Shown piece by piece: positions 1 through 16,231 of a stretch of 64,000 nucleotides of DNA (position 1 is the stretch's first letter; every line of letters begins with the position of its first letter). The position numbers and the translations under genes were made by a program. Source of the DNA: Myxococcota bacterium (GTDB lineage: Bacteria; Myxococcota_A; Polyangia; Nannocystales; Nannocystaceae); the NCBI GenBank assembly GCA_039028615.1, contig JBCCHT010000015.1:160001-224000 (forward strand), written 5' to 3'. The notes below the pieces were generated by a model that searched no databases, was not told where the DNA came from, and worked only from the letters and a program-made list of their open reading frames with translations.

Positions 1-3000
1 GCGACCCCCAATGGTGGTGGGGCCTCGCCAGCCGGGGGCGGTGGCACGGGCGCGGGTCGGCTTCCCTTGTCCGGTGGAGGTACGACCACCGTCCCTTCGG
101 GGGCCGAGACGCAGAGCATCGCCGAAGCGGCTGGGCTGCCGCAGATCTTCAGCCTGTTGAAGTCGGTGTTGGCCGCGGGGTCGCTCAATCAGCTGCAGCC
201 CAATGTGCCGTCGGCTCCCGTGGCACCGGTCTTGACGGCGGACACGACCGTCCTTCGACTCGCTGGCACGCGGACCGGGCTGCAAGCGGGCGACCCGATC
301 CTCATCGCCGGCACCGACCCCGAACGCGGTACGCCGGTCTCGTGGATCCGCTTTGTGGAGTCGGTCACGCCCAACTCCAACCCCAGCTACACCACGGTCA
401 CGTGGCAGCCGCCGCTGGGCCAGCCGAGCGAGGACGTGGCCCCGCCTTTGCCGTCGGTGGTCAACGGCCCGCAGGTGTTCGGCTTCGCCAAGAGTGCGAG
501 CCTGTTCGGCAACACCGCGGCGAAGTGGTCGACCCTGCGCGACACCGTCAAGGTGACCCTCGCTCCGCCGATGGGGGGCGTGCTGGTGTCCGCCGACGGA
601 GGAAGCACCTGGGCGGGGCAGACGTCGGGGCTCCCGATGGAGACGCCCACCGCGGTGCTGACCAGCGGCGATACGACCTTCGTCGCGCTGACCAACAAGG
701 GCCTCTACCGCAGCGATGGTGGCTCGTTCGTCGCGGCCAACGGCGGGATCAGCCAACGCAGCATCTTCACCGTGGCGGGTCGCAGCGACGACTTCATGGT
801 GGGAGCGGCCAGCGGCAAGGCCTACGGCTCGGTCGACGGTGGCGAGTCCTGGGACCCGATCATGGGCGGCCCACCGGTCTTGTCGGGGCGGGGACGCAAG
901 CGACAGGTCACCCAGACGCAGCTGCCCTCGACCAACGTCCGAGCGCTGCTGTCGGTCAAAGACGAGATCCACGCCGGGACCGATCGGGGCGCCTTCGTCT
1001 ATGACGGCACCAACTGGGCGCCCGACGGGACGCTCACCACCCCCGTGTTCGCCCTGGTGAACGGCAAGCACGGGGTGACGGCAGCGACCTCGACCGGCGT
1101 GGTGTCCCTGCAGTCGCGGGGCAAGTGGAAGCCGGTCGGCAAGGGGCTACCGAAGGCCGCCGTCGTCGGGCTGGCCGAGGGCAACGACTTGGTCGCCGCC
1201 ACCGCGACCGGAGTCTGGTTCCTCAGCGGCAAGACGTGGACGGAGAACAACGGGACGGCTCCGAACGCATTGCCCTCCGGTGTGACCATCACCGCCGTCG
1301 CGGCCACGGGCGGGACGGCCTGGGTGGGGACGAAGGCACAGGGCCTGTACCGCTCGACCGACGGCGGCTCGAGCTGGCAGCGGGTGGATGTGCAGCAGCT
1401 GTTCACCGCGCCGTCGTCCGACGCTCCCACGAGCACCACCATCCCGGAATCGCTGGCCGTCGAGTTCAGTCGACAGGGCTATCCGCTCACGCGCAAGGCC
1501 ACGCTCGCCAAGTCCGGCTCGAGCTGGACGATCACCGACGGAACGCTGGCCTACACCCTGGTCCCCGACAGCAGCGGCGTAGCGGTGTCGCTGACCGATG
1601 CGTTGCCGTCGGTCAGCGCGCTGAGTGTCGATGGGCAGACGGTGGTGGCCGTCGGTGCGTTCAACGGTTTTGCGGCGGAGCAGTGGCCGGGCTTCGAGCT
1701 GTCGCGCACCGTCGACTTGTCGAAGGTCAACAACGAGATCGTGGCCAACGGCTGGGTCGTGCTGGCGCAGAACACCTCGGCCGGGGCGCTGTCGGCCGCG
1801 TACCAGGTGGACGAGGTGCTCGGCGTGTCTCGCTCCGCGTTCGGGGTCTCCGGCGAGATCACACGCTTGAAGGTGACGCCCACCACGGGGCTACCCGAGT
1901 TCGACCTCCGCAATGCGGACGCGTGGGTCCAGAGCACGCGGCTGTCCCTCTACAGCCCGGTGACCAGCACGCTGACGCCGATCTCGGGCACCACGATCGA
2001 ACTCGACCAGCAGCTCGACACGGCCCTGCCCCTGCCACGTGCAGCGGTGGTGGAGGGCAAGGCGGTCAACGCCGCCATCGTGCCCGTGGGCGGGGTCTTG
2101 GCGTGGCAGGGCTCCTCGTGGCAGCGACGGGCCTTGGCTCAGGCGGATGTCCGGGCGCTGGCGGTCGATGCTCAGGGCAACACCTACGTCGGCACCAAGG
2201 GCAGCGGGGCGTTCGTGCTGCCCCAGTCCGCGACCACGACGACACCGCTGGCCTCGGGACTGTCGGCGAAGACGGTCGAGGCGATGTCCACCGTGCGCAT
2301 CGATGCCCACACCGAGGTGGTGCTCGCGGGAAGCTCCGATGGGGTCTCGATGCGCACGGGCGTCAGTGGGGCGTGGACCCCTGCCGGGCTCGACGGGCGG
2401 AGCGTTTCGGTGCTGGCGACCGGCAGCCACGCGAAGGTCTACGCGGGCACCAGTACCGGTGGCGTGTACTCGGCCACGATTGGGAGTTCGAGCGCGGCGC
2501 CCTCGTGGAGCACCTCTCCCAGCCTCGGCGAGGCGGTCACGGCCATCGCCATCTCGGGCGGAGGCACGGCCTACGCAGGCACGGCCAAGGGGGTCTTCGT
2601 GCTCGATGGAGGCACGTGGCGAGCGCTGACCCAGGGCCTGAGCGATACCCGGGTGTGCGACCTCGTGTTCGATGCCTCCGGCACCTTGCTCGCGGCCACC
2701 CAGGGCGGTGTCTTCAGCTATTCCGTGTCGCGGCGCGAATGGGATGCGCAACGGAACGGCCTGCCCGTCGTGCCCGTGCAGACGCTGTTGGTGGTGGGCC
2801 ATGAGCTGTACGCGGGCACGCGAGGGGCGGGGGTGTATCGTCGCGCGTCGTCGGGGCGGCGGTGGTCGGCGGTGCCCACGGGCGCTTCCAACGATGTCCG
2901 GGTGCTCATCGAGGGCCCCGACGGGAAGCCGTGGTACGGGGCGCGCAACGTGGCCGTCCTCATCGGCGAGGATCAGCGCCGCGTCGAGTTGGCGCAGCCG

Positions 3001-4629
3001 TTTTTGTTCTCGACCACCAGCGTGGACACCACCGGGTTCGGCATGCTCGACCAGGGAATGATCCCGGACACGGTCACCGATGCGTTCACGCAGGAGAAGA
3101 TCCAGCTCGATGCCGCGGCGACCGTGCTGCCGCTCGAACTCGGGGCCACGTGGCTCGTCACCAGTCAGAGCACGCTGTACGTGTTGGCGCTGTGGCAGGC
3201 GGTGGCGACCGGCGCTCCGCTCCAGGTGTATCGCAACGCCACGGTCGCCTCCGTCACCGATGCGCCGACCGGGAAGGGGGCGGTGCAGACGTACCGCCTG
3301 CAGGACAAGCTGGGCGCCTCGGGGTCGCTGTCGGCCACGGCCAGCGAGGTCCAGCTGCAGCCGGCCGCGAGCGGTGACGCGACCCTGAAGGAGCACATCC
3401 AGGTGACCGGCCAGAGTCCAGACCCGGGCCGCGACTCGACCGACGTTCCCTCGGACACCACGCTCACCACGCTGACGCTGAAAAAACCGCTTCGGCACTA
3501 CTACGACGCCTCGACGGTGAGCATTCACGCCAACGTCGGGGCGGCGCGCCACGGCACCGCAGCGAAGCAGGTCATCGGGAGCGGCGACTCGAGCCAAGCC
3601 AACCAGACCTTCGACGTTCCCGGTCCGGTCGCGGCCACGGGCTCCGAGCCGACCTCGACGACGGCCGCGGACGATGCTCATCCGCTCGTCGGGATGCCCA
3701 AGACCACGCTGAGCATCGACGTGTCGGGGCAGCAGTGGAAACAGGTGCAGTCCTTCGCCCACAGCGGGCCCGACGATCGCCACTACGTCGTCCATCATCA
3801 AGCCGATGGATCTGCTCGTGTCACCTTCGGCGACGGTGATCACGGCGCTCGCCTGCCGACCGGGCGAGAGAACGTCACCGCTCGCTACACCCGCGGCGGC
3901 GGGCCGCAGGGCGAGGTGGGAGCGGGTCGGGTCCAGCAGCTTCGCACGCAGCCACAGCTCGTGCAGCGGGGACACAACCCCACTGCGGCCACGATCCCGG
4001 CGACCTCCGGCCGACGCGATCAGGTGGCCGCGTCGATCCAGGCGCTCGGGCGGGTTGTCTCCATCCAAGACATCCGGGACTATGGCCTGGCATATCCCGG
4101 AGTCGGCAAGGCGCGGGTCGATGTGGTGCGAACGCCCAACGGCCGCACGCTGGTGCTCACCGTCGTGGGCAAGGGCAAGGACCTCGAGGAGGACCTCGCG
4201 GCGGCCATCGCTTCGGTGCGGGGTCCGGGGTTGCCGCTGCGAGTCCTGAAGGCACGCCATCGTCACTTTCGCGTGGCGGCGACGCTCTACACCGACCCCG
4301 GGGTGAACCTCGAGCACTCCGCTCGGGCGGCGATCGAGCACGCCTACGATGCCCGCGCCCGGCAGATCGGTCAGGACGTCACGTCTTCCGAGATCGTCGC
4401 GACGCTGCAGGCCATCGACGGCGTCCGGGGCGTGGAACTCACCGCGTTGTATCGACTCGAAGATTCGCCCTCCGTGGAGCCCGTGATCGAGGCCGAGGGC
4501 GCGCGGTGGAGTGCGGCCAGCCAAAGGGTGCGCGGCGGTGTCGTGCTCCAGGTCGAGTCTTCACCCCACGCGATCGAGCTGAAGGTCGTGTCCGAGCCCG
4601 CGCAACCCTTCGACGGAGACCCGCCATGA
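1..4629 (+). CDS. Large baseplate J-like (eCIS baseplate assembly) protein with inserted Asp-box/BNR beta-propellers; 5'-truncated by window edge
   Basis: Frame is open from base 1 (ATPNGGG...). C-terminal baseplate-J motifs GSGDSSQANQTF, WKQVQSF..SGPDDRHY, VTFGDGDHGARLPTGRENVTARY..GGG, RVVSIQD. Asp-box repeats SADGGSTW, SVDGGESW, STDGGSSW. Confidence 0.88.
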   Translation, partial: ATPNGGGASPAGGGGTGAGRLPLSGGGTTTVPSGAETQSIAEAAGLPQIFSLLKSVLAAGSLNQLQPNVPSAPVAPVLTADTTVLRLAGTRTGLQAGDPILIAGTDPERGTPVSWIRFVESVTPNSNPSYTTVTWQPPLGQPSEDVAPPLPSVVNGPQVFGFAKSASLFGNTAAKWSTLRDTVKVTLAPPMGGVLVSADGGSTWAGQTSGLPMETPTAVLTSGDTTFVALTNKGLYRSDGGSFVAANGGISQRSIFTVAGRSDDFMVGAASGKAYGSVDGGESWDPIMGGPPVLSGRGRKRQVTQTQLPSTNVRALLSVKDEIHAGTDRGAFVYDGTNWAPDGTLTTPVFALVNGKHGVTAATSTGVVSLQSRGKWKPVGKGLPKAAVVGLAEGNDLVAATATGVWFLSGKTWTENNGTAPNALPSGVTITAVAATGGTAWVGTKAQGLYRSTDGGSSWQRVDVQQLFTAPSSDAPTSTTIPESLAVEFSRQGYPLTRKATLAKSGSSWTITDGTLAYTLVPDSSGVAVSLTDALPSVSALSVDGQTVVAVGAFNGFAAEQWPGFELSRTVDLSKVNNEIVANGWVVLAQNTSAGALSAAYQVDEVLGVSRSAFGVSGEITRLKVTPTTGLPEFDLRNADAWVQSTRLSLYSPVTSTLTPISGTTIELDQQLDTALPLPRAAVVEGKAVNAAIVPVGGVLAWQGSSWQRRALAQADVRALAVDAQGNTYVGTKGSGAFVLPQSATTTTPLASGLSAKTVEAMSTVRIDAHTEVVLAGSSDGVSMRTGVSGAWTPAGLDGRSVSVLATGSHAKVYAGTSTGGVYSATIGSSSAAPSWSTSPSLGEAVTAIAISGGGTAYAGTAKGVFVLDGGTWRALTQGLSDTRVCDLVFDASGTLLAATQGGVFSYSVSRREWDAQRNGLPVVPVQTLLVVGHELYAGTRGAGVYRRASSGRRWSAVPTGASNDVRVLIEGPDGKPWYGARNVAVLIGEDQRRVELAQPFLFSTTSVDTTGFGMLDQGMIPDTVTDAFTQEKIQLDAAATVLPLELGATWLVTSQSTLYVLALWQAVATGAPLQVYRNATVASVTDAPTGKGAVQTYRLQDKLGASGSLSATASEVQLQPAASGDATLKEHIQVTGQSPDPGRDSTDVPSDTTLTTLTLKKPLRHYYDASTVSIHANVGAARHGTAAKQVIGSGDSSQANQTFDVPGPVAATGSEPTSTTAADDAHPLVGMPKTTLSIDVSGQQWKQVQSFAHSGPDDRHYVVHHQADGSARVTFGDGDHGARLPTGRENVTARYTRGGGPQGEVGAGRVQQLRTQPQLVQRGHNPTAATIPATSGRRDQVAASIQALGRVVSIQDIRDYGLAYPGVGKARVDVVRTPNGRTLVLTVVGKGKDLEEDLAAAIASVRGPGLPLRVLKARHRHFRVAATLYTDPGVNLEHSARAAIEHAYDARARQIGQDVTSSEIVATLQAIDGVRGVELTALYRLEDSPSVEPVIEAEGARWSAASQRVRGGVVLQVESSPHAIELKVVSEPAQPFDGDPP

Positions 4630-6767
4630 GCACGCAGGAACGACTCTACCCGCTGCTCCCGGTCTACTTTCGCCAGCGCGATCTCGAGGTGGGTCAGCCG
4701 CTTCGCGCGTTGATGGCGGTGCTTCAGCAGCAGGGCGAAGCGCTGCACGGCAACATCGCGGAGCTGTACCGGGACTGGTTCATCGCGACCTGCTCCGAGT
4801 GGGCGGTGCCCTATATCGGTGAGGCGATCGGCATCTCGGGGCTCGAGGACAGCCGCAGCGTCTCGTTCAGTCAGCGCGCCCGCGTGGCCCACACCATTCG
4901 GGATCGTCGTCGCAAGGGGCGACTGTCGACGCTCGCCTGGGCGCTGCACGATGCGAGCGGATGGTCGGTCTACGCACGGGTCGCGTTTCCCGTGGTGGCG
5001 ACGACGCAGTCGCTTCAGCACCTGCGCCTCGATCGAGGCCGCCTGGTCGACGTTCGCGATACCGAAGCGTTGGTCGAGCTCGAGCAGCCGTGGAGCGAGA
5101 CGGCCCGCACGGTGTCGATCACCGGACGATCACAGGCGGAGTCGGGAGCCGTGATCGGTGGGGTGGGGCAGTCGTTTGCGCCCTACAACTTGCCGGACAT
5201 CGCGGTGTCGATCTGGCGGCTGACGAGCTACCAGGTTCGAGGCGCGACGGCGGCCCGAGTCGTGGTCCCGCCGCGTCGAGGCCGGGGACCCTCGGGGCAG
5301 TGCTTCACCTTCGATGCGCTCGGCTTCGACGTCCCGCTGTTCCTGTTGCCCCGGACACGAACCGACCAACAGCTGCCGCCCACGCCCGCGGACCTCTGTC
5401 GCCCCATGACGCGAAACGACCTGCGGCAGGCGCTGAACGAGGCCCGTGCGGCCGTGGACGGGACCGACCACGAGGTCGGCCTGTCGATCACGCTGGTGGG
5501 GTCGAGAGGCCAACGGCAGCCGGTCTCGCCCGAGAAGATCGTGGCCGCCAACCTCGACGATTGGCGCCCGCCCCCGGTGTCGCCGCCGACCACGGCCGAT
5601 CGCTCGCCCTTCGTCGCCGTGGATCCCGAACGCGGTCGGTTGATGGTGCTGGGCGCGACCGTTGCCAGCGTCGTGGTCGGCTATGCCTACGGCTTTTCGG
5701 GCGACGTCGGCGGAGGCCCATACTCGCGCGCCTCCCAGTGGGAAAGCGCCGCCGAGGGCACCTGGGTCGCCTGCGTGGGGCGGGGCCAGGGCTACGGGGG
5801 GCGGGTCTTCTCCACGCTCCAGGCCGCGCTCGCGGCGTGGCCCTCCAAGGAAAAATCGGCCCGGATCACGTTCATCGACAGCGGCACCTACGAGGCGCCC
5901 AAGCCGGCCGAGGTCTTCGGCATCACCCTCGGGGCAGGCCGGAGTCTTCACATCACGACCGCCGCGGGAGAGCGACCCACGCTGGTAGGCACGCTGTCGG
6001 TCACGACCGCGCAGTCGGGGGCGCTCATCCTCGAGGGGCTGTGCATCGACGGCACGGTGAAGGCCACCGGACGGCTGGCGCTCGAGGTTCGGCACTGCAC
6101 GCTCGTGCCCCGCACGGAGCCAGCGGGCCGCGGTGTCGCGCCGCGCCCCGGCGTCGTCTTGCAGGATCCCTTCGCCAGCCTGCGCCTCAGCTACAGCATC
6201 AGCGGCCCGCTCCTGGGCACCGACGAGACGCTGATGGCCCTCGAACGCTCGATCATCGATGCTGGCAGCGCGGACGCCTGGGCCCTGTCGGCGGGGCCCC
6301 ACAGCGGCGGGGCCCCGATGGAGGTCATCGCCAACTCGTGCACGGTGCTCGGGCGCACGGCGGCGGCGCGGCTGTGTGCGACCGGCTGCATCTTCACCGG
6401 GACCCTCGAGGTCGAGCAGACGGCCCACGGATCGATCGACGACAGCTGGGTGCCTCCCGGGTCGACCACGCCGCCGCTGCATCGCACGCAGCCGGCCATG
6501 GCCCTCGCGGGTATCCGCGACCCGGCGGTGCGACGGCGAGTGCGGCTGCGCACCGCCCCGGTCTTCACCTCCACCCAGTACGGGCAGCCCGGCTACGCCC
6601 AGCTGGGGGAAGCCAGCACGATGCCGATCCGAACGGGGGGCGAAGACCGACGCCAGATGGGCGTGTGGTCGTTCCTCGAGCAGCCCTACCGGGAAACCGC
6701 GGTCATCTCGACGGCGGAGACCTACCAGCCCAACGAGCTCATCTCGAGCCTGCACTACCGGTCCTGA
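4626..6767 (+). CDS. eCIS/phage tail (P2 gpI-like wedge) protein with C-terminal beta-helix-like region
   Basis: ATGA overlap with the upstream stop. N-terminus RLYPLLPVYFRQRD..GQPLRALM..LYRDWFIATCSEWAVPYIG..RRKG is typical of tail proteins that follow baseplate J; also VAVDPERGRL, YGFSGDVGGGPY, PVFTSTQYGQPGYAQL. Confidence 0.82.
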   Translation: MSTQERLYPLLPVYFRQRDLEVGQPLRALMAVLQQQGEALHGNIAELYRDWFIATCSEWAVPYIGEAIGISGLEDSRSVSFSQRARVAHTIRDRRRKGRLSTLAWALHDASGWSVYARVAFPVVATTQSLQHLRLDRGRLVDVRDTEALVELEQPWSETARTVSITGRSQAESGAVIGGVGQSFAPYNLPDIAVSIWRLTSYQVRGATAARVVVPPRRGRGPSGQCFTFDALGFDVPLFLLPRTRTDQQLPPTPADLCRPMTRNDLRQALNEARAAVDGTDHEVGLSITLVGSRGQRQPVSPEKIVAANLDDWRPPPVSPPTTADRSPFVAVDPERGRLMVLGATVASVVVGYAYGFSGDVGGGPYSRASQWESAAEGTWVACVGRGQGYGGRVFSTLQAALAAWPSKEKSARITFIDSGTYEAPKPAEVFGITLGAGRSLHITTAAGERPTLVGTLSVTTAQSGALILEGLCIDGTVKATGRLALEVRHCTLVPRTEPAGRGVAPRPGVVLQDPFASLRLSYSISGPLLGTDETLMALERSIIDAGSADAWALSAGPHSGGAPMEVIANSCTVLGRTAAARLCATGCIFTGTLEVEQTAHGSIDDSWVPPGSTTPPLHRTQPAMALAGIRDPAVRRRVRLRTAPVFTSTQYGQPGYAQLGEASTMPIRTGGEDRRQMGVWSFLEQPYRETAVISTAETYQPNELISSLHYRS

Positions 6768-6817
6768 CCACGAGACCCGAAGAACGCATCATGAAGCACG
6801 GACTCAAATACGGGACC

Positions 6818-9800
6818 ATGTACGGGGACTTCTCTCGGCTCCCGGAGGGGTTGTTCGAGCCGTTCACCAACGTGTGGATGCAGCAGGGGAGGGTGCAGCT
6901 CGACTCCGACTGGAACGCCCAAGCGGCGCTGACTCGACAGCGCGCGGCGATCGGGCTGACCGACATCATCGGTCGCACCGGGGCCCCCGCCGTGTCGCCC
7001 GGGTTCGGTGTGCGGCCGATGTTCGGGGTCGAGCTGGGTCTTCACGGCTACCTCGAGGTGCACGACGCGGCCCCGTTCGCGTTCGAAGGCACTCAGCCCT
7101 TCACCCTCGAGGCCTGGGTCGACCTGTCGCCGCTCGACGGTGGGGGCACCGTGCTCACCTGCGCCTCGCCGATGGCCGATGGTGGCTACTCGCTGTTCAT
7201 TCGCGACACGCTGGTCCGCTTCGGTCGCTGGGAGCTCGACGAGCGCGGGGAGGCTTCGTGGCAGCTGCTCGAGGCCCGACGCCCGCTGACCCCCGGCCGC
7301 TTCATGCACGTGGCGGCGGTCTACGACGGTCGGGTGTCGCGGGTCTACGTCGGCGGTAAGCTGGCGGGGGAGGGCGCCGCGGGGCCGGGGGCTTCGGGGG
7401 CGTCACAGCTGTTCCTCGGTGGAGTGCCCGAGGACTCGGGGGTGCCGGGCGAGTCGCTCGATGGAGCGATGGCCGGGGTTCGGATCTGGTCGCGGGCCCG
7501 GTCGCGGGCCGAGATTGCCCGCGATGTCGCTCGGGACCGTCGGGGGCTGGCGGACGAGCGAGCGGAGCACCTGATCGCCCATTGGCCTCTCGACCAGGGG
7601 CACGGCGAACGGGCACAAAACGACGTCGGTGCTCGCTACGCCACGTTGCGCGACGGGGCGAGCTGGCGGTTGTTCGACCTGGCGATCGAGCCGGGTCGCT
7701 ACTACGTCGACGGGGCCATCGCCGAGCTTCATCGTGGCGAGCGCTACACACAGCAGCACGCATACCCGGGGGCCCGGCTGCCTACGCATCCGGGGCTCTA
7801 CGCCATCGTGCTCGAGCTGTGGGAGCGGTCGATCAACCCCATCGAGGACCCGACCCTCCGCGAGATTGCGCTGGGCGGGCCCACCACCACGACCCGCAGC
7901 GCCTTGGTGCCCGCGGTGCGGCTGATCTCGTTGCCGCGGGCTCAGGCCGACCTGCTGAAGCTCGACCACGACGAGACGGCCCGTCGCATCGAGTCCGCGG
8001 TCGACTCGCTCACTCGCAGCACGGCCCGGATGTCGGCACGCCTGCGCCCCTCGGGGCCCGTGGGCAACTACCTGTATCGGGTGGAGGTTCACGACCCCGG
8101 GGTCCTGGGCGAGAGCCTGCCGAGCGAGCTCATCGAGCTCGAGGTCGTCCGGGTCGCGGCCGAGGTCTCCGAGCTGCACCTCGGCGATGTGGACCTCGAG
8201 ATCGTCGACTTCACCATCGACGAGTACGTCGAGCTGACCAGCGGCTCGGGTGAGCTGCGCGTGCACGCCCGGGTGCTGCACTGGCATGGGGAGCGGGGGG
8301 CCCTCGGGATCGAGATCGACGTCGAGACCCTCCAGATCCTCGAGGCCGACGGCCCGACGACCCTGCGTCGGTCTCGAGGTCCCACCTTCAAGTGGTCCCG
8401 GACCAACGGGTCGACGGTGGAGGCGATCGAGCCCATCGAAGGCGACGGCAAGACCCTCGTCGTCACCGGGTGGACGGACGGCCGCATGCCCATCTCCGCG
8501 GGCGATTGGCTCGAGATCGTCGACGATCGCTACACGCTGCGCAACGAGCCCGCGCACCTGGTGCAGGTGGCTCGGGTCTCTTCCCAGCAGCGTCGCATCG
8601 AGCTGGTCGAGCCGGCTCCCTCGGGGGTCGGGCGCAACGGGTCGTTGCATCCCTTCGTGCGGCGGTGGGACCAGCACGCCACGGAAGCCACCCAGCTGCG
8701 AGGCGGCGCGGTGGTCATCGACCGTAACCAGTGGATCGCGCTCGAGCACGGCCTCTCGGTCTCGTTCGAGGCCGGGACCTACCGCCGGGGCGACTACTGG
8801 TGGGTCACGGCGCGCGCCGACAGCCAGTCGATCGAGTGGCCCACCCGCGACGACGAGCCGCTGTCTCAGCCTCCCTTGGGGGTCGCGCGCTCGCGGGCCG
8901 TGCTCGGGTTGTTCGCTCAGGGCAAGGGGGCCGCGGTCGTTCGCGATCTTCGTCGAGTCTTCGCCACGCTGCCCTTCCATGGGGGGGTGCCGCACGGGGA
9001 CACCGACGGCGACGGCATCGAGGACGAGGCCATCCCGCTCGAGCCCGAGGTCATTCCCGAGACGCGAACGGAAGAGCCCGAGCCGTCGCCGAGCTTCGCC
9101 GAAGGTGGCGAGATCATCCTTCGTACCGTCGACGAGCCGCCCCTGAACTACCACCGCACGGGCGACCGCATCGAACTCGAAGGGCCCACGCCGCACTGGG
9201 ATCACGATGCGCTGGAGGGCATGGGAGCGGACTGCGAAGGCGTGACCGAGGTGGGCGGTGTTGCGTTCGTGCTCTCGGCCGAGGCCATCTTCCGCGTGGC
9301 GGACAACGGCGCGCTCGCCCAAGGGGCACGGATGCCGGCGCTGCGTCGGGCGTTCGGCTTGACCGCGTGCCGGGGTCGCATCTTCGTGATCGGTGGTGTC
9401 GACGATCGAGGTCGGCGGGTCGATACCGTGTTCGCCTACGATCCGAGCGCCGATCAATGGGAGACGCGAGCGCCCCTGCCTCGCGAGCGCAGTCACCTCG
9501 GAGCGACGGACGTCGACGGCAAGATCTACGCGGTCGGCGGCATCGAGTCGTTCCTTTGGCTCTTCGAGCGGGCCAGCGATCGCCTCGACATCTACGACCC
9601 CGAGCACGATCGCTGGTCGGAGGGCCCCACGGCGCCGCATCGTCGCAGCGAGCTCGGGGTCGCGACCTTGGGCTCGCAGGTACACGCGGTGGGAGGCAGC
9701 CGTCGGTCGTGGGGCAAGGACCAGGAGACCGATACCCACCAGATCTACGACGTCGCTCGCAAGACCTGGGTCGAAGGGGAGCCGCTGCCGCTGCGGGTCG

Positions 9801-11008
9801 CCGCGATGGCGGTGGCGGTGCACCACGGGCATCTACAGGTGGTCGGTGGTCGCAACCGTCGCGGCTGGCTCGCTCGCGCGAACGCCTACGACCCGGCCTT
9901 TGCCACCTGGAGCGCCGCCCCACGCTTGGCGATCGCGGTCGAGTTCCCGCACGGGGCGGCGGTTCGCTCGCAGCCGTGGGTGCTCGGTCGGGCGGGCGCA
10001 GAGTCGTCGAGCGTGGTGCGGCAGCGGCTCGCGGCGCGTCCCGTGCTCTACGTGTTTGCCCGGGATGAACCCGATGCGGTCGGTCGTGGGGATGCTGCGA
10101 GTCGATTGCCGCCGCCGGTCAGTCGAGGCATGCGCCCCGCCGGGTCCGACCGTGCCCCCGAGGGCCATCGGCGCAAGCCTCGAGCGCGGAGGGCCCTCGA
10201 GATCGCGACGGCGGGCACCCTCACCCTCGGAGGTGGCGGTGGGACGGCGTGGTGGCTGCTGCCGAACGGCGAATCCTCGGGCACGGGCACGGAGGCTGGC
10301 GCCGAAGGAGGCAGCGCTGCGCTCGAGCCAGTGGCGTCCATCGGGCGTCGCCAGGTCCATCGCGTGACCTCGTTCGGCTTCGTGTTGTTCGAGTCGGGTC
10401 TGACGGTCGCGGCCAACGGAGCCCCGGAAGCGTTCCACCCCGACGGGGCGCCGGGCCTGGATGCCCTCACCGACGCGGGGCGCCCCGGCGACTGGTGGGC
10501 CCTGGTGACGGAAGGGGGAGGCTCGCGCGGCACGCCCATCGTGCAGGGCGAAGAGGACCCGGCGCCCGGCTTCTACATCTCGAGTACCGCACTGGTCGAT
10601 GCCGAGCGGCGCCAGGACGACCCGCGGCGCTACGTCGATGCCTCGCAGATCCCGTACGTGGCGCTCCCCGGAGGGCACGACTTGTTCGGAGCGCAGCTGG
10701 GCGACGTCGCCACGGTGCTGCACCTCGACAGCGGCATGGTGGCCCACGCCATCGTGGCGGACGAAGGCCCGCCCGACCTGCTCGGCACGGGGTCGATCGC
10801 GTTGGCGAATTCCTTAGAGCTCGACGCCGACCCGCGCGACGGCGGAGCCTCGTCCGGGGTGGTGTACCTGGTCTATCCGGGCACGGGAGACGGCAAGCCC
10901 CGGTCGGCGGAGGAGATCGACGAAATCGGTGCCCGTGAACTCGAGCGCCTGGGAGGCCGTGCCGAGCTCGAGCGCCTGGCCGAGCTTCATCGAGGGTCGA
11001 CGCCATGA
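6818..11008 (+). CDS. DUF6519 family eCIS protein with LamG, Kelch-repeat and C-terminal GH75-like domains
   Basis: MYGDFSR..QQGRVQLDSDWN, GRYYVDG, EDPTLREIALGGP, NYLYRVEVH, FKWSRTNGS, LEHGLSVSF..YRRGDYW. Alternative ATG at 6791. Confidence 0.85.
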   Translation: MYGDFSRLPEGLFEPFTNVWMQQGRVQLDSDWNAQAALTRQRAAIGLTDIIGRTGAPAVSPGFGVRPMFGVELGLHGYLEVHDAAPFAFEGTQPFTLEAWVDLSPLDGGGTVLTCASPMADGGYSLFIRDTLVRFGRWELDERGEASWQLLEARRPLTPGRFMHVAAVYDGRVSRVYVGGKLAGEGAAGPGASGASQLFLGGVPEDSGVPGESLDGAMAGVRIWSRARSRAEIARDVARDRRGLADERAEHLIAHWPLDQGHGERAQNDVGARYATLRDGASWRLFDLAIEPGRYYVDGAIAELHRGERYTQQHAYPGARLPTHPGLYAIVLELWERSINPIEDPTLREIALGGPTTTTRSALVPAVRLISLPRAQADLLKLDHDETARRIESAVDSLTRSTARMSARLRPSGPVGNYLYRVEVHDPGVLGESLPSELIELEVVRVAAEVSELHLGDVDLEIVDFTIDEYVELTSGSGELRVHARVLHWHGERGALGIEIDVETLQILEADGPTTLRRSRGPTFKWSRTNGSTVEAIEPIEGDGKTLVVTGWTDGRMPISAGDWLEIVDDRYTLRNEPAHLVQVARVSSQQRRIELVEPAPSGVGRNGSLHPFVRRWDQHATEATQLRGGAVVIDRNQWIALEHGLSVSFEAGTYRRGDYWWVTARADSQSIEWPTRDDEPLSQPPLGVARSRAVLGLFAQGKGAAVVRDLRRVFATLPFHGGVPHGDTDGDGIEDEAIPLEPEVIPETRTEEPEPSPSFAEGGEIILRTVDEPPLNYHRTGDRIELEGPTPHWDHDALEGMGADCEGVTEVGGVAFVLSAEAIFRVADNGALAQGARMPALRRAFGLTACRGRIFVIGGVDDRGRRVDTVFAYDPSADQWETRAPLPRERSHLGATDVDGKIYAVGGIESFLWLFERASDRLDIYDPEHDRWSEGPTAPHRRSELGVATLGSQVHAVGGSRRSWGKDQETDTHQIYDVARKTWVEGEPLPLRVAAMAVAVHHGHLQVVGGRNRRGWLARANAYDPAFATWSAAPRLAIAVEFPHGAAVRSQPWVLGRAGAESSSVVRQRLAARPVLYVFARDEPDAVGRGDAASRLPPPVSRGMRPAGSDRAPEGHRRKPRARRALEIATAGTLTLGGGGGTAWWLLPNGESSGTGTEAGAEGGSAALEPVASIGRRQVHRVTSFGFVLFESGLTVAANGAPEAFHPDGAPGLDALTDAGRPGDWWALVTEGGGSRGTPIVQGEEDPAPGFYISSTALVDAERRQDDPRRYVDASQIPYVALPGGHDLFGAQLGDVATVLHLDSGMVAHAIVADEGPPDLLGTGSIALANSLELDADPRDGGASSGVVYLVYPGTGDGKPRSAEEIDEIGARELERLGGRAELERLAELHRGSTP

Positions 11009-13293
11009 CCGAGGCGGTGGTCCAGAGCACGCCGCTGGTCTCCACGTCGGGCGAGGCGCTGCCGCTGGTCTCGTGCATCATGCCGACCAAGGACCGTCGC
11101 CCCTACGTCGCGGGCGCGATCGAGTACTTCTTGCGGCAGGACTACCCGAACCGTGAGCTCATCATCCTCGACAGCGGCGAGGATGCGGTGGCGGACCTGG
11201 TGCCCGAGCACCCGATGATTCACTACGTCCGCTGCGAGGTCGGCTTGTGCCTCGGCAGCAAGCGCAACTTGGCGTGCGAGCGGGCCCGCGGGGAGCTCAT
11301 TTCGCACTGGGACGACGACGACTGGAGCGCGCCCTGGCGGCTGCGGGTGCAGGTGCAGCAGCTGCTCGCCGACGATGCGGACATGTGTGGGCTGGCGAGC
11401 ATGCTCTACTACGACGCCCAGACCAAGGCGGCGTGGCGCTACGAGTATCCGAAGGGCGACCGGCCGTGGGTCGGCGGCTGTACCATGCTCTACCGCCGCG
11501 ATCTGTGGCTCTCGCAGCGCTTCGAGGACCTGCACAGCGGCGAGGACAACCGCTTCGTGTGGCGAGACCCCGCGCCGCGTATCGCGATACCCGAGGACGG
11601 GTCCTTCCATGTCGCGCTGGTACACGGCGGCAACGCGAGCCCGAAGCACACCAATACCGTGCGCTGGCGACCGATTCCGATCGAGCGCATCGAAGAGGTC
11701 ATGGGTTCGGATTTTCGCCACCACGGCCGAGCGCGACCGAGCCGCCCCGCGGTCTCGGCCTCCTCATCGGCCGCTACCCCTGCGCCGCGCCCGGCGGCCT
11801 CGGGCTTTCGCAATCTGTACGCGTGCCTCGTGCACGAGCGGCCGGACTGCGTCGCCGACCTCGTTCGAAACCTTCGCTATCTCGACCCGCAGGCGCACGT
11901 CCTGCTCTACGACGGAAGCCCCCGCAGCAGCCTGCTGCGAGGCGGGCACCTCGAGGGGCTCGGCGCGATGGTTCACCCCACGCCGCGCCCCATGAAGTGG
12001 GGCTACCTCCACGACTTCGCCCTCGACTGCATGCGCTACGGCCTGCAGGCGATGAGCTTCGATGCGCTGACCATCGTCGACTCGGACCAGCTGGCCATCC
12101 GCTCCGGGTTCACCCCGCGACTCGGCGAGTACCTGGCGGAGCACGAAGACGCCGGCATCCTCACCTGCGCTCCGCACCCGCAGCGGGCGGCCACCGCCGC
12201 CGACCCGGCCAAGACGGCGCTGCGCGAGAACAACCTGTGGCAGTCGTTCTTCGAGCGCTATCCGGGGCCCGAGCAGGAGCGCTGGTACTGGACCTTCTGG
12301 CCCACGACGGTCTTCACCGCCAAGGCGGCGCGGGACCTGCTGGCGATCTTCGAGGACGAGCAGCTGCGCTCGATCCTGGGGCGCTCGCGGCTATGGGCGA
12401 CCGAGGAGGTCTTGTTTCCCACCCTGACCGCGCTGCTCGGCCACGACGTACTCGCCAACCCCGGTAGCTACGACTACGTGAAGTATCGAGCGCGCTACTC
12501 CGTGGCCGACCTCGATGCGGCGATGGGCTCCGATGATTGTTTCTGGGTGCACCCGGTGCCGCGGGACTACGACGATCCGCTGCGCCGTTACATTCGCGAA
12601 CGTCACGGGGACTACGTCCGGCCCGCGTCCGAAGACGAGGCGTCGGTCGAGTCGAGGCCGGCCGACGAACGCCGGGAGGGTCCCCCCGTCTTGCGGACGC
12701 TGCCCATCGTGCGAGCCATTCGCCCGCTGAAGGGGTGGCTCGACGATGATGAGGCCGATCTGCTGGTGGCCACGACGCGCGAGGCGCTGGCGCTGCCGGG
12801 CGCACCCAACGTGGTGGAGGTGGGGAGCTTCTGTGGTCGCGCCACGGTGGCCATGGGGATGGTCGCGCGCACCGTCGATGCCGCCCACGTGTTCGCCGTC
12901 GATGCCTTCGATGGGGTGGTCGGGGCGGCGGGCGATCGCCTGGAGCACTTCGGCCCCACGCTCGAGCGCTTCACCGCCAATGTCGATCGGGCTGGCCTGC
13001 AGCGCTGGGTCACCGCCGTACCCACCGAGGGACAGCGCCCCGAGTGGAGCGCGTCGCTGGCCATGCTCGTCGTGGACGGACTACACGACTACGCGAACGT
13101 CTCCGCCGATCTCGAGCACTTCGAGCGGTGGCTTCGTCCCGGGGGCTACCTGGTGTTCCACGATTACGCGCCCTACTTCCCCGGAGTGACGACCCTGGTG
13201 GACGAGGTGCTCGCTCGCGGCGACTACGGGTGGGTGGCGCAGGCGTCCACGCTGGTCGTGTTGCGCAAGCGCGAGCCGAAGGAGGACGACTGA
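11005..13293 (+). CDS. GT2 glycosyltransferase / unknown middle domain / class I SAM methyltransferase (Methyltransf_24-like) fusion
   Basis: PLVSCIMPT..QDYPNRELIILD, SHWDDDDW (GT2). VVEVGSFCG, VDGLHDY..LRPGGYLVFHDY (methyltransferase). ATGA overlap with the upstream gene. Confidence 0.85.
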   Translation: MTEAVVQSTPLVSTSGEALPLVSCIMPTKDRRPYVAGAIEYFLRQDYPNRELIILDSGEDAVADLVPEHPMIHYVRCEVGLCLGSKRNLACERARGELISHWDDDDWSAPWRLRVQVQQLLADDADMCGLASMLYYDAQTKAAWRYEYPKGDRPWVGGCTMLYRRDLWLSQRFEDLHSGEDNRFVWRDPAPRIAIPEDGSFHVALVHGGNASPKHTNTVRWRPIPIERIEEVMGSDFRHHGRARPSRPAVSASSSAATPAPRPAASGFRNLYACLVHERPDCVADLVRNLRYLDPQAHVLLYDGSPRSSLLRGGHLEGLGAMVHPTPRPMKWGYLHDFALDCMRYGLQAMSFDALTIVDSDQLAIRSGFTPRLGEYLAEHEDAGILTCAPHPQRAATAADPAKTALRENNLWQSFFERYPGPEQERWYWTFWPTTVFTAKAARDLLAIFEDEQLRSILGRSRLWATEEVLFPTLTALLGHDVLANPGSYDYVKYRARYSVADLDAAMGSDDCFWVHPVPRDYDDPLRRYIRERHGDYVRPASEDEASVESRPADERREGPPVLRTLPIVRAIRPLKGWLDDDEADLLVATTREALALPGAPNVVEVGSFCGRATVAMGMVARTVDAAHVFAVDAFDGVVGAAGDRLEHFGPTLERFTANVDRAGLQRWVTAVPTEGQRPEWSASLAMLVVDGLHDYANVSADLEHFERWLRPGGYLVFHDYAPYFPGVTTLVDEVLARGDYGWVAQASTLVVLRKREPKEDD

Positions 13294-14084
13294 TGCGTTG
13301 GTCTCGGCACGCCGCCGCGATCACCGTGATCGTGGTCGCGATGTCGGCCGCGGGGTGTCGCGATCGGCAAGACGATTCGGGACGCGGCGCCGCGGCGGGG
13401 GATGCCACCGACGATTCCTCTTCGTTCGAGCTCCTCCCCGGCACCATCACTCCGCTGAAGCCTGGAGCGCGCGGTGTCGATCGCCTGGGCGCAATCAATG
13501 CCCGACGCGCCCGGGCCCTGCGTGCCGACGGGATCGACTTCGCGGTCCGCTATGTCCGCCACGCGTCGTCCAACGCCTCGCTGACGACCCGCAAGGAAGC
13601 AGAGGGCATCTTGGGGGCGGGCCTGACCCTGATGCTCGTGCAGGAAGGTCGAGGGTTTCGCCAAACCCGGCCCTCGGCGGAGCTGGGCGAGCGCGATGCT
13701 CGAGCGGCGGTCGCCCATGCCGAGCACCTCGGCTATCCACGCCAGGGAACGCTGTGGCTGGACATGGAGGCCATCACCGCGCCCGGTACGACCGCGGACG
13801 ACGTCATGAACTACGCGCGTCGATGGCATGAGGTCGTTGATGAGCACTACTCGCCGGGCTACTACGTGGGCCCGGTGGGCAAGCTCGACGGTGACCAGCT
13901 GGGGTCGCTGCCCTTCGAGCACTTTTGGAAATCCGCGGCTCGGGTGCCGACACCCACCGGGCGCGGCTACCAGCTCCTCCAGGGGCATCATCGCGAGATC
14001 GCGGGCGTGGTGGTGGACCCGGATACCGCCCAGGACGACGATCAGGGCGGCCGCGCGCTCGGACTCTCGCCTCCATCTCGATGA
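13293..14084 (+). CDS. DUF1906 / Rv2525c-like (GH25-related) peptidoglycan glycoside hydrolase lipoprotein
   Basis: TGATG overlap. Lipobox MSAAG-C. Motifs GIDFAVRY, EAEGILGAGLTLMLVQE, GERDARAAV..LGYP..LWLDME, PGYY. Confidence 0.78.
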   Translation: MRWSRHAAAITVIVVAMSAAGCRDRQDDSGRGAAAGDATDDSSSFELLPGTITPLKPGARGVDRLGAINARRARALRADGIDFAVRYVRHASSNASLTTRKEAEGILGAGLTLMLVQEGRGFRQTRPSAELGERDARAAVAHAEHLGYPRQGTLWLDMEAITAPGTTADDVMNYARRWHEVVDEHYSPGYYVGPVGKLDGDQLGSLPFEHFWKSAARVPTPTGRGYQLLQGHHREIAGVVVDPDTAQDDDQGGRALGLSPPSR

Positions 14085-14165
14085 GCGGCACCTCGGAGCC
14101 CACGCCTAAATCACCCAGAATCCGCTCGTAATCCGCTATCCTGACCCCAGGAGACGACGCCCTCG

Positions 14166-15509
14166 ATGCCCCATCAACGAGTTGCCGCGCGAGCGAAAGC
14201 TGCTGGAGATCCGCAGCCCGTACGCCCGGTGCAGCGCGTCGATGCTCCCGCGATGGAGGGATCACCCGGGATGTTCGGCATGAGCCTGAGCACCATGAAG
14301 GTCGGCCGCTCGCGCTCCACGAACCTGCCCGATCGCTTGCGCGCGGGCATCGAGTCGCTGAGCGGCATGTCGATGGGCGGAGTACAGGTCCACTACGACT
14401 CGCCGCGGCCGGCTCAGGTCGACGCCTTGGCCTACACACAGGGCCGGGACATCCACCTCGCGCCGGGGCAAGAAGAACACCTCGCCCACGAAGCGTGGCA
14501 CGTCGTGCAGCAGGCGCGGGGGCGCGTGCGGAGCACGGGGACGCTCGACAACGGGGCTCGCGTCAACGAAGACCACGCCCTCGAACGCGAAGCCGACGTG
14601 ATGGGGAAGCGAGCGCAGGGGCACTCGGGGTCCAGCCCCGCGCTCCCGACCGGTGAGAGCCCCGTCTCGTCGCCTCTTGCGCCCGGAACCGCCCAGGGGG
14701 GCTTCGCTCCCGTGCAGCGAAAACCCAAGAGCCTGCGGGCTCGTATTCGGGAGAAGCAGAAGAACAACACGCCGCTGACCGCACGCGAACAGAGGTTTTT
14801 GGATCAGCAGCAGCGAGCCCAGGCTCAGCCGACGCGGACCTTCTTCCACATCACGGGGAGCCCTGGCTTCGCCAATACCCTCGCGGCCGGTCGTCAGCGG
14901 CCAACGCCGCTCACCCATGCGCAGCTTCAAGCCAACCACGGCGTGAGCATCGATCCTCGGTTCACGCAGCGCAGCCGGACGGCCACGAATCCGATCGGGG
15001 ACAGCCTCAGACCAGGAGACGACCTCGGCCCTGGCTTCTATACGACCGACAGCGCGGCCTTCGTCGACCACTACCTGAACGCGAATTTCAGCGGCGGGGG
15101 CAACGAGCACGATGCTCGGATCCTGTCGTTCCAAGTTCCTGCCAATTCGTTTCGGCACTTGGACGTCCAGGACAACCGGCTCGACGACGAGGACACCTTC
15201 CAGCGAAACATGCGGGATGGCTTCGCGACTCAGGACGTTGCGACTCGACAAATCTCATTGCCGCGGCTCGATGCAGGAGTCGGCCACGATATCGTCAGCG
15301 GTCCGATCAATGACGTCGCGACACCGCCGACACGCCCCACCAGCGACGGCACGACGAGATTCAGCCAGGGGACCATCCTCAGGCTGGCCAACGAGACGCC
15401 GCGCCAGCAGAACTTCGCCAGTCGGGCCGCCGTGGACGCGCTGTACGACAACTCCCAGATGAGCGTGTTCAACCTCGAGCAGTGGCGAAAGCACCGCGCA
15501 GCGCGCTGA
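14166..15509 (+). CDS. DUF4157 (eCIS core domain) effector with DUF3990/ART-like C-terminal toxin domain
   Basis: LPDRLRAGIESLSG..VHYDS..ALAYTQGRDIH..HLAHEAWHVVQQ..ALEREAD (DUF4157). C-terminal FHITG, DLGPGFYTT, DIVSGP, QQNFASRAAVDAL. Confidence 0.85.
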   Translation: MPHQRVAARAKAAGDPQPVRPVQRVDAPAMEGSPGMFGMSLSTMKVGRSRSTNLPDRLRAGIESLSGMSMGGVQVHYDSPRPAQVDALAYTQGRDIHLAPGQEEHLAHEAWHVVQQARGRVRSTGTLDNGARVNEDHALEREADVMGKRAQGHSGSSPALPTGESPVSSPLAPGTAQGGFAPVQRKPKSLRARIREKQKNNTPLTAREQRFLDQQQRAQAQPTRTFFHITGSPGFANTLAAGRQRPTPLTHAQLQANHGVSIDPRFTQRSRTATNPIGDSLRPGDDLGPGFYTTDSAAFVDHYLNANFSGGGNEHDARILSFQVPANSFRHLDVQDNRLDDEDTFQRNMRDGFATQDVATRQISLPRLDAGVGHDIVSGPINDVATPPTRPTSDGTTRFSQGTILRLANETPRQQNFASRAAVDALYDNSQMSVFNLEQWRKHRAAR

Positions 15510-15511
15510 CC

Positions 15512-15970
15512 ATGGCGACGATCATTACTGCGGTCCGAGCGTGCCTCGAACAGGATGGGCTCCGCTACGAGCTCGATGAGCAGGGACAGGCGTTGCGCTT
15601 CGGGTTTCGCACCGAGGCGCATCGTTGGACGTGCATCGCGCAGAGCGACGAACAGCGACGACGCCTCGCCTTCTTCAGCATCGTGCTCGCGCCAGTCGAA
15701 CGAGAGCGACGCGGGGCGGTGATGGAGCTGCTGTCGCGCATCAACTGGGGGTTGTTCCTCGGGAGTTTCGATATCGAGCTCGACACCGGTCGGGTTCGCC
15801 TGCGGACCTCGGTCGACTTCGGGGAGGAGCCGCCAACGACCGGCCTGGTGCAGCCGCTCATCCACGCCAACCTGGCCACCATGTCGACGAACATGACGGC
15901 GATTGATCGGGTGATGGGGGGCCAAGCCTCGCCCGCGGAGGCGTTGCGAGAGCGCGACGGCCCGCCGTAG
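15512..15970 (+). CDS. YbjN-domain (T3SS-chaperone-like fold) protein; candidate immunity protein or chaperone
   Basis: ATG 2 nt after the effector stop. VMELLSRINWGLFLGSFDIELDTGRVRLRTSVD is a YbjN-type signature. Confidence 0.75.
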   Translation: MATIITAVRACLEQDGLRYELDEQGQALRFGFRTEAHRWTCIAQSDEQRRRLAFFSIVLAPVERERRGAVMELLSRINWGLFLGSFDIELDTGRVRLRTSVDFGEEPPTTGLVQPLIHANLATMSTNMTAIDRVMGGQASPAEALRERDGPP

Positions 15971-16065
15971 GCATCGGGGCGAGGAGACACTGGTCTCGTA
16001 TTGCAGGTGCCCACCTGCGGACTCGCGCCGAGACCCCATGACCATGGGGGCGGGCCTCCGTCGCG

Positions 16066-16135
16066 GCCGGACTGACCGTCGACGTGGCGCTGGTGGATCT
16101 GGGGCTGCCCGACATGCGCGGCACCGCTCTATGGC
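16066..16135 (+). pseudogene. Remnant of a response-regulator receiver domain
   Basis: Translates to LTVDVALVDLGLPDMRG, the phospho-Asp loop of REC domains, with no flanking receiver sequence in frame. Confidence 0.45.
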
Positions 16136-16231
16136 GTCGAGCCGCCCGCGCTGCCGCTGAGTACAGAGGCGGTCGAGTCGACCCTGGTCGTCCAGGCATC
16201 GCTCGACTGGTCGTGAGCCCTCCGTGCGCGG

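Follow-up and report, generated by a model that had tools for sequence, protein, structure and literature searches.

A DUF4157 gene with a predicted ADP-ribosyltransferase-fold tip and a probable YbjN-family partner beside an eCIS operon in Myxococcota

Introduction

The stretch of DNA analysed here (the window: 64,000 nucleotides of a Myxococcota contig, G000:C15:160001-224000, in a 12.3 Mb genome of about 68% GC that is 96.7% complete) raises a double question: what would be carried by the eCIS particle whose operon ends in it, and what is the role of the small gene directly behind the candidate cargo gene? As far as the accessible parts of the sources go, most antibacterial eCIS toxins have no recognisable immunity gene and the loading of cargo is poorly understood (PMC8213781; bioRxiv 10.64898/2026.05.27.728243). 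The gene at the centre of this work, P0001, is very likely a cargo gene, packaging being predicted from its sequence and surroundings. The reading that we favour, with more confidence than doubt, is that its product is a NAD-consuming toxin injected by the adjacent eCIS and provided with an escort or immunity partner. Fusion of DUF4157 to an ART-fold domain in an eCIS toxin is, as an architecture, ordinary: ART (EAT1) and RES (EAT5) toxins of these systems have been published (PMC8213781), and the initial annotation went too far in calling the kind of toxin new. A Gln at the catalytic position and a YbjN-family partner gene were both absent from that annotation.

A probable cargo gene behind a complete eCIS operon

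The core eCIS operon lies upstream of the window (G000:C15:144495-159515). Nine of the 13 upstream ORFs scanned match the sheath, tube, T4 baseplate, Pvc16_N, AAA, CIS_tube, Phage_base_V (VgrG-type OB), gp25 and Baseplate_J families. Because sheath, tube, Pvc16, AAA ATPase, spike, gp25 and Baseplate_J stand in one operon, the label of eCIS locus, already proposed for this DNA, holds. The genes that follow within the window are:

67..4629, + strand: large baseplate-type eCIS gene (inferred from position and sequence; weak propeller matches in Pfam); the ORF may begin before the window
4626..6767, + strand: 713-aa eCIS operon gene with no Pfam family above cut-off
6791..11008, + strand: DUF6519, LamG and Kelch protein with a weak GH75-like C-terminus; probable tail-fibre-type protein, last structural gene
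11005..13293, + strand: glycosyltransferase 2 and methyltransferase gene (Pfam)
13293..14084, + strand: Rv2525c-like glycoside hydrolase (E 3e-18), N-terminus lipoprotein-like by eye
14166..15509, + strand: P0001, 447 aa, with leader, DUF4157, linker and ART-fold domain; probable eCIS cargo
15512..15970, + strand: YbjN-family gene (Pfam; T3SS class I chaperone fold), probable chaperone or immunity partner

P0001, third gene past the DUF6519 gene and on the same strand, thus comes after a complete eCIS operon, and a PLP decarboxylase gene on the opposite strand ends the run after the YbjN gene. It has been reported that 88% of known eCIS toxins are found within ten genes of the operon (PMC11297309); P0001, as expected of cargo, is encoded at most ten genes from the core. 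A syntenic eCIS operon was absent from five genomes of the same genus, where LamG/Kelch matches alone were found and the DUF6519 gene had no orthologue. A sigma-70 scan of 13200-16300 returned no promoter, and the five terminator-like sites, every one on the minus strand inside the P0001 gene, are uninformative.

Several neighbours deserve mention in their own right. The glycosyltransferase-methyltransferase and Rv2525c-like hydrolase genes (11005-14084) are coupled, and they separate the cargo gene from the eCIS core. Inside the operon, an 831-aa low-complexity ORF (G000:C15:147524-150019, that is L001:5025-7520) matches nothing in Pfam and, at 0.758, is lower in GC3s than the rest of the cluster. 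DUF6519-Kelch proteins end in differing glycan hydrolases, weakly GH75-like in the window (E 0.002; 6791-11008), a GH25 lysozyme at another locus (L002:13-3003); this C-terminus could be a swappable wall-degrading tip and could hint at the target.

From leader to linker

The ORF 14166-15509 is open throughout on the plus strand, as first annotated, and free of internal stops over its 447 codons. The region 13000-16500 is spanned by a single Logan contig (run X1) with no differing letter and no joint, a contig which is itself a possible source of this DNA; the sequencing run that holds the region is labelled marine metagenome, and there is no RNA run among the sequencing runs listed for it. The protein divides as follows:

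14166..14324, + strand: low-complexity leader, aa 1-53, including an LSTMKV stretch; probable loading sequence (from composition, the role suggested by AlgoCIS data)
14325..14610, + strand: DUF4157 / eCIS_core domain (Pfam match aa 54-119, 14325-14522)
14611..14825, + strand: Pro/Ser/Gly linker with PVQRK and a Lys/Arg-rich stretch
14826..15506, + strand: ART-fold domain (the tip), 227 aa, of a DUF3990-like subfamily (alignment, model, fold searches)

By composition alone, and with an uncertain start codon, 74% of the leader residues promote disorder. Its length is uncertain because database copies of the protein begin at M30 (14253; P0014) or at M39 (14280; P0002). The DUF4157 domain was correctly called canonical: Pfam gives PF13699 (eCIS_core) over aa 54-119 at E 9e-12 (45.4 bits against a cut-off of 22) and finds no other family in P0001, and the HExxH motif of the domain is present as HEAWH (aa 108-112, nt 14487-14501). 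No match to P0001 was found in NCBIfam, nor by PADLOC for P0001 and the YbjN protein of the window.

Where the initial annotation erred is in making DUF4157 the loader. In AlgoCIS, cargo deprived of DUF4157 is still loaded, while cargo deprived of its disordered N-terminal region is not (bioRxiv 10.64898/2026.05.27.728243, accessible part), and none of the 11 relatives of the tip found in a full scan has DUF4157; the loader role was rejected on the AlgoCIS deletion data. The PVQRK junction does exist (aa 182-186, nt 14709-14723), but [VIL]QR is weakly typical of such proteins, occurring in 4 of 20 DUF4157 segments from the same genus, where shuffled sequences would give 1.3. A Lys/Arg-rich run (14718-14800) comes directly after PVQ, and the cargo-like gene G000:C2:187442-188509 has a comparable basic stretch behind its PIQL.

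By eye, the LSTMKV stretch resembles the leaders of other cargo-like genes of the genome. These genes have in common a short motif, approximately [SD]-L-[SGR]-x-[IMVF]-x-V with P-[VI]-[QLM]-Q further on, some of them lacking DUF4157; it may be a loading signal of these systems. The sites are in the window at 14268-14312 and elsewhere at G000:C2:185757-188509, G000:C23:58609-60114 and L002:4550-6577.

Codon usage had been taken as the mark of a swapped toxin tip, and this we reject, the low GC3 spanning the whole gene. Against 0.873 for 13 pooled structural genes, GC3s is 0.804 in the tip (p 0.004) and equally low, 0.787, in the N-terminal half (p 0.0005), the two parts of P0001 being alike (p = 0.72). 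The entire gene is atypical for the operon and mildly so for the genome, where it comes near the 23rd percentile among 6205 roughly collected long ORFs; a swapped tip is not indicated.

Predicted fold and catalytic residues of the tip

All the motifs listed for the C-terminal domain in the initial annotation (FFHITG, SIDP, DLGPGFYTTDS, ILSFQVP, HDIVSGPI, QQNFAS) are confirmed in the translation, and they exceed chance because they fall on columns conserved across the family. An AlphaFold2 model of aa 221-447, built on a 12-row alignment, has a pLDDT of 87.1 and a pTM of 0.83. When it was compared with 48,161 PDB representatives by VIA, the best match was RhsP2 (Z 8.0, rmsd 4.6, 125 aligned residues), a Z that models lacking a clear match can also reach. 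Next in rank came diphtheria toxin, ParT and others, with RES toxins at ranks 3 and 6. Among the 50 VIA rows listed, 39 are presumably of ART, PARP, RES or DarT type, judging from titles and from the nature of the named proteins. Foldseek, as had been suggested for about residues 220-447, placed RES, PARP2, RhsP2, DarT, ParT and diphtheria toxin in its top rows, the first three being RES toxins; against the PDB no row reached E 0.001 (best 3e-3), and TM-scores by query were 0.2-0.34. Atlas neighbours of the tip include DUF3990, exotoxin A and Tox-ART-HYD1. Sequence and profile searches against PDB chains gave no match for the tip, and a BFVD fold search gave one unnamed match at E 2.9e-4, the rest being weak. 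Because the matches are consistent in kind, even as individual scores are modest, the ART-type fold first suspected from the motifs is endorsed: the predicted split beta-sheet very probably belongs to the ART superfamily.

The predicted triad is H228 (14847-14849), Y292 (15039-15041) and Q414 (15405-15407). On the model these residues (H8, Y72 and Q194 of the domain) occupy the first strand (E3-10), the second (E71-74) and the fifth core strand (E193-197), which is the order of the H-Y-[EDQ] clade of ARTs, with His in strand 1, Tyr in strand 2 and E, D or Q in strand 5 (PMC7955679, in the part accessible). By modelled strand order and by conservation, the tip belongs to that clade. The triad is unchanged in the nine full-length rows out of nine, whose invariant columns include H8, R62, GDDLGPGFY, G159-P160 and Q194 of the domain (R282 and G379-P380 being the P0001 numbers of the second and fourth), and it is at least 90% conserved in the 16-row alignment.

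Classical H-Y toxins have Glu at the catalytic position. That residue of the diphtheria/ExoA-type H-Y-E toxins is absent here, and Gln stands in its place in all full-length rows. A Glu-to-Gln change can be damaging, the E1576Q variant of RhsP2 being inactive (PMC12340436). An H-Y-Q triad can nevertheless be active, because VopU of Vibrio parahaemolyticus requires all three of its residues, H7, Y38 and Q141, for mono-ADP-ribosylation; in the accessible part of the preprint, this triad is described for VopU only, and the target is a host protein of 18 kDa (bioRxiv 10.64898/2026.05.07.723553). The P0001 tip is probably an active enzyme, and it may be either a transferase or an NADase. The domain has no consistent basic charge (pI 4.7-8.8 across the 16 rows).

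A rare sister of DUF3990

A full scan of 1.84 billion representatives with the tip gave 12 matches, P0001 itself and 11 relatives at 30-45% identity, and a profile search added four further members (16 rows in all). The full-length relatives have low-complexity leaders of 47-116 aa that differ from one relative to the next. As cases in point, P0013, P0019 and P0023 have a common FWE-containing leader unlike those of other relatives, and P0005 begins (aa 1-15) with a leader of double-glycine type (Pfam Bacteriocin_IIc at E 0.066, below cut-off; no NCBIfam match), a hint that the same domain may also exit through an ABC transporter.

No member of the family was found in 72 other genomes of the same order, in samples of 400 genomes each from the class and from the phylum, or among 153 genomes of the order of G469, a genome with relatives of the tip. 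Nothing appeared at E 1 when plasmids were searched by tblastn, and viral contigs yielded no relative of the tip family or of two DUF3990 queries. Two further searches were also empty: of 469 candidates from a word index of proteins, none scored against the tip by itself, and of 8000 proteins of 616-2000 aa none scored against the family alignment, the latter being weak evidence. The family is rare and leaders vary among relatives, which is the pattern of polymorphic toxins. P0001 is not unique in joining DUF4157 to an ART domain, because a remote relative with large insertions is also fused to DUF4157 at L006-L008 (hhalign 97%, 84 columns). That contig, of 44% GC, bears two tandem DUF4157 genes with near-identical leaders (L006:712-4524), the first with the remote ART relative.

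The assignment to DUF3990 made at first is half right, the tip being related to this domain and outside its bounds. The P0001 tip matches PF13151, a family of the ART clan, at E 0.12 (12.4 bits), and the best relative seen scores 28.1, under the cut-off of 32.2; 13 of the 16 rows match at E 0.1 or better (best E 1.8e-6) and none reaches the cut-off. Membership of P0001 was rejected, its score being under the curated cut-off. An hhalign comparison of the tip family with an alignment of three genuine DUF3990 proteins gave 92.9% (E 3.8e-7), with a shared chain H..D[FL]GxGFY..DIVxG[PA]..QxxF..A..L over 128 columns. By contrast with DUF3990 proteins, the P0001 tip is about 70 aa longer, with extra residues inserted after H, ahead of Y, and again ahead of the GP motif. 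Since the motif chain is shared and the cut-off is failed, the family is, on sequence grounds, a rare sister subfamily of DUF3990.

DUF3990 itself is described as an uncharacterised tip of Rhs toxins, including those of Serratia and Enterobacter (PMC4524185, PMC12165300, PMC10763514, accessible parts), and in this service as the tip of a delivered toxin it resembles our domain. It has no occurrence in the eCIS operons tabulated in a 2021 survey (PMC8213781 supplement, file 4). We found the canonical domain mostly in DUF3990-DUF3791 pairs on plasmids, many of Bacteroides and Clostridium (also L025, L027), and it matches the PADLOC candidate defence models PDC-M10A and PDC-M13A/B; the pair is probably an unstudied toxin-antitoxin or defence pair.

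The probable YbjN partner

The YbjN gene starts 2 nt past the stop codon of P0001. Its product matches PF10722 at E 1.5e-10 (41.9 bits against a cut-off of 22), and all 30 of its Atlas matches are YbjN. At the three close-family loci with context, from two genomes, a YbjN gene stands directly 3' of the ART gene in every case: in the window, and at L002 and L003/L005 of G469, where YbjN overlaps the ART stop and leaders differ and lack DUF4157. At L002 the ART gene is preceded by a DUF6519-Kelch-GH25 gene, with a DUF4157 gene downstream, and the leader of the relative has 12 of 17 residues in common with that of a neighbouring gene; no eCIS gene was seen near the relative at L003/L005, over the 20 kb covered.

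Of the three YbjN and four DUF4157 matches in the genome of the window, P0001 and its neighbour form the sole adjacent pair. In four genomes of the same genus, none of 30 DUF4157 matches has YbjN on its contig (a separate local check of these loci was weak, only eight extending 300 bp past the stop), and YbjN is likewise missing beside the remote DUF4157-fused relative at L006-L008. We rejected YbjN as a universal neighbour of DUF4157, the other three DUF4157 genes of the genome and the 30 same-genus matches being unaccompanied. In a tree of 12 rows (L013, L016, L019, L020 and L023 excluded), the three ART-linked YbjN proteins group with a support of 58/22 only, and a clade is not indicated. 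They are less acidic, with 21-26 Asp and Glu against 28-46 in most stand-alone YbjN of relatives.

Published tables already contain the signal. Among eCIS operons YbjN is over-represented (odds ratio 6.1, FDR 1.2e-5, 14 cases in two phyla; PMC8213781 supplement, file 4), and in six of the 12 YbjN rows of a prediction table a DUF4157 gene adjoins YbjN, in cyanobacteria and Solimonas, the tips not being visible there (PMC11297309); in the accessible main texts of both papers YbjN goes unremarked. The protein has the fold of class I T3SS chaperones and acts apart from T3SS where studied (PMC5398634, PMC13092808), and TY-chaperones have been linked to ADP-ribose conflict systems (PMC9503650, in the part accessible). 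No match to YscJ/FliF was found in the genome of the window (96.7% complete), which leaves its YbjN without the same-genome T3SS that goes with T3SS class IA. That genome has a single FHIPEP gene (G000:C27:13009-15135) and, on a separate contig next to the ribosomal operon, a FliP/FliQ-like pair (G000:C55:68051-68925); these are scattered export-gate remnants. G469 has both FliP and YscJ/FliF matches.

Weighing the explanations

Our preferred reading has points against it: fold scores are modest, Gln replaces Glu, L003/L005 lies away from eCIS genes and the linkage to YbjN comes from two genomes. The tip might instead be a pure NAD+ glycohydrolase or phosphorylase of RES/TNT-like type, with YbjN as a dedicated immunity protein plugging the NAD pocket and bacteria as targets, an explanation that we consider rather unlikely. 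It draws on the RES toxins that lead the Foldseek rows and reappear at VIA ranks 3 and 6, on the Gln, a residue used by TNT-type NADases, on a charge that is not consistently basic, as binding to nucleic acid would lead one to expect, and on the persistence of YbjN with the ART domain as leaders change. Among eCIS toxins, moreover, the RES toxin EAT5 comes with an immunity gene of its own (PMC8213781). Yet His in strand 1 and Tyr in strand 2 are features of the H-Y clade, unlike RES (PMC7955679), and VopU, with H-Y-Q, is a transferase (bioRxiv 10.64898/2026.05.07.723553); YbjN adjoins large DUF4157 proteins in other phyla, which a general chaperone fits better than dedicated immunity does.

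If YbjN is taken as a class I chaperone, as its fold invites (PMC5398634), the tip family could be chiefly a eukaryote-directed effector of other systems, T3SS-like ones, of which this copy was recruited to eCIS against a protist or other eukaryote. All 11 other relatives from the scan lack DUF4157, the full-length ones having low-complexity leaders of 47-116 aa, VopU is an H-Y-Q effector of a T3SS (bioRxiv 10.64898/2026.05.07.723553), and G469 has the FliP and YscJ/FliF matches just mentioned. We nevertheless judge this unlikely: the genome of the window lacks YscJ/FliF and scatters its lone FHIPEP and FliP-like genes over different contigs, the L002 leader agrees at 12 of 17 positions with that of a neighbour in an eCIS-type cluster, the YbjN proteins that have been studied work apart from T3SS, and the family profile misses a probable homologue of VopU. 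The latter is a hypothetical 145-aa protein of pO55 (WP_000273581.1, at L076:18218-18655) that has a His7 and a Tyr38 and is probably the VopU homologue of E. coli; a three-member DUF3990 profile matches its N-terminus at E 0.006, while the best score of the tip-family profile on pO55 is E 1.2, the homologue there having been identified by inference.

Quite improbable, in our view, is a weak or inactive ART-like module, never injected, that would regulate or bind something within the producer, for example to time lysis or the release of particles. The missing catalytic Glu, the inactivity of RhsP2 E1576Q (PMC12340436), the mostly intracellular DUF3990-DUF3791 plasmid pairs with their PDC-M10/M13 matches and the fact that VopU does not kill cells (bioRxiv 10.64898/2026.05.07.723553) would suit such a module. 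Against it, residues of the NAD pocket are strictly conserved at 28-43% identity, and the gene is fused to DUF4157 and located at the end of the operon.

A scenario and what it would mean

An injected cargo toxin, the reading that we prefer, would work as follows. The leader, predicted to be disordered, would be recognised by the AAA ATPase of the operon and the protein threaded into the tube, DUF4157 being accessory. After injection, the tip would bind NAD+ and either move one ADP-ribose onto a target, protein or nucleic acid, or cleave NAD+, and this use of NAD+ would lead to growth arrest. In the producer, the YbjN protein would bind the cargo and keep it soluble, loadable or inactive. For YbjN, a chaperone role has close to an even chance, dedicated immunity is doubtful and neither of the two a shade more so; as targets, bacteria are slightly favoured over eukaryotes. 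To be sure, DUF4157 proteins are not always toxic, ML_1 and ML_7 having failed to kill yeast (PMC11297309).

We found no literature on this tip subfamily or on YbjN as an eCIS partner, in a coverage that lacks most subscription papers. The boldest form of the proposal, that YbjN proteins form a class, so far unrecognised, of chaperones or immunity proteins dedicated to eCIS cargo and that the cargo is an active H-Y-Q NAD-using toxin, is tentative, possible and short of probable. It is this YbjN lead that carries most of the value, since a YbjN coupled to cargo and enriched in eCIS operons is a simple candidate answer to the question of missing immunity and of loading. Were it true, the two-gene cassette would be the clearest example of such a class, and self-protection of the producer and preparation of the cargo for threading would become testable. 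The soluble-looking, well-modelled H-Y-Q sister of DUF3990 also offers a direct assay route for a domain of unknown function, and the DUF3990 clade would gain its first tested function.

Relation to described systems

P0001 resembles the DUF4157 cargo of other eCIS (Cgo1/Cgo2, EAT14) in having a leader, DUF4157 and a variable tip at the 3' end of an eCIS operon, and the SpvB-type EAT1 and the RES toxin EAT5 show that NAD-using folds are already among eCIS toxins. It differs from known cargo in its tip, a DUF3990-like H-Y-Q domain, and in its YbjN partner; canonical DUF3990 has DUF3791 for a partner instead. With VopU, a mono-ART, it has the H-Y-Q triad in common, while VopU is a protein of 174 aa delivered by T3SS2 and, in the accessible text, without known chaperone (bioRxiv 10.64898/2026.05.07.723553). 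RhsP2, the RNA ART of Pseudomonas aeruginosa, is the best structural match of the tip, at Z 8.0; it is distinguished by an R-Y-E triad and a basic RNA-binding surface (PMC12340436), where P0001 has H-Y-Q, and also by an identity of 5%, delivery by a T6SS and another immunity protein. Finally, the partner is like YbjN/AmyR, the TY-chaperones and the class I chaperones of T3SS, its Pfam YbjN match being above cut-off and its gene adjoining cargo of a secreted type. By contrast with these families, it is coupled here to the gene of an ART-fold eCIS cargo, in a genome without a recognisable intact T3SS.
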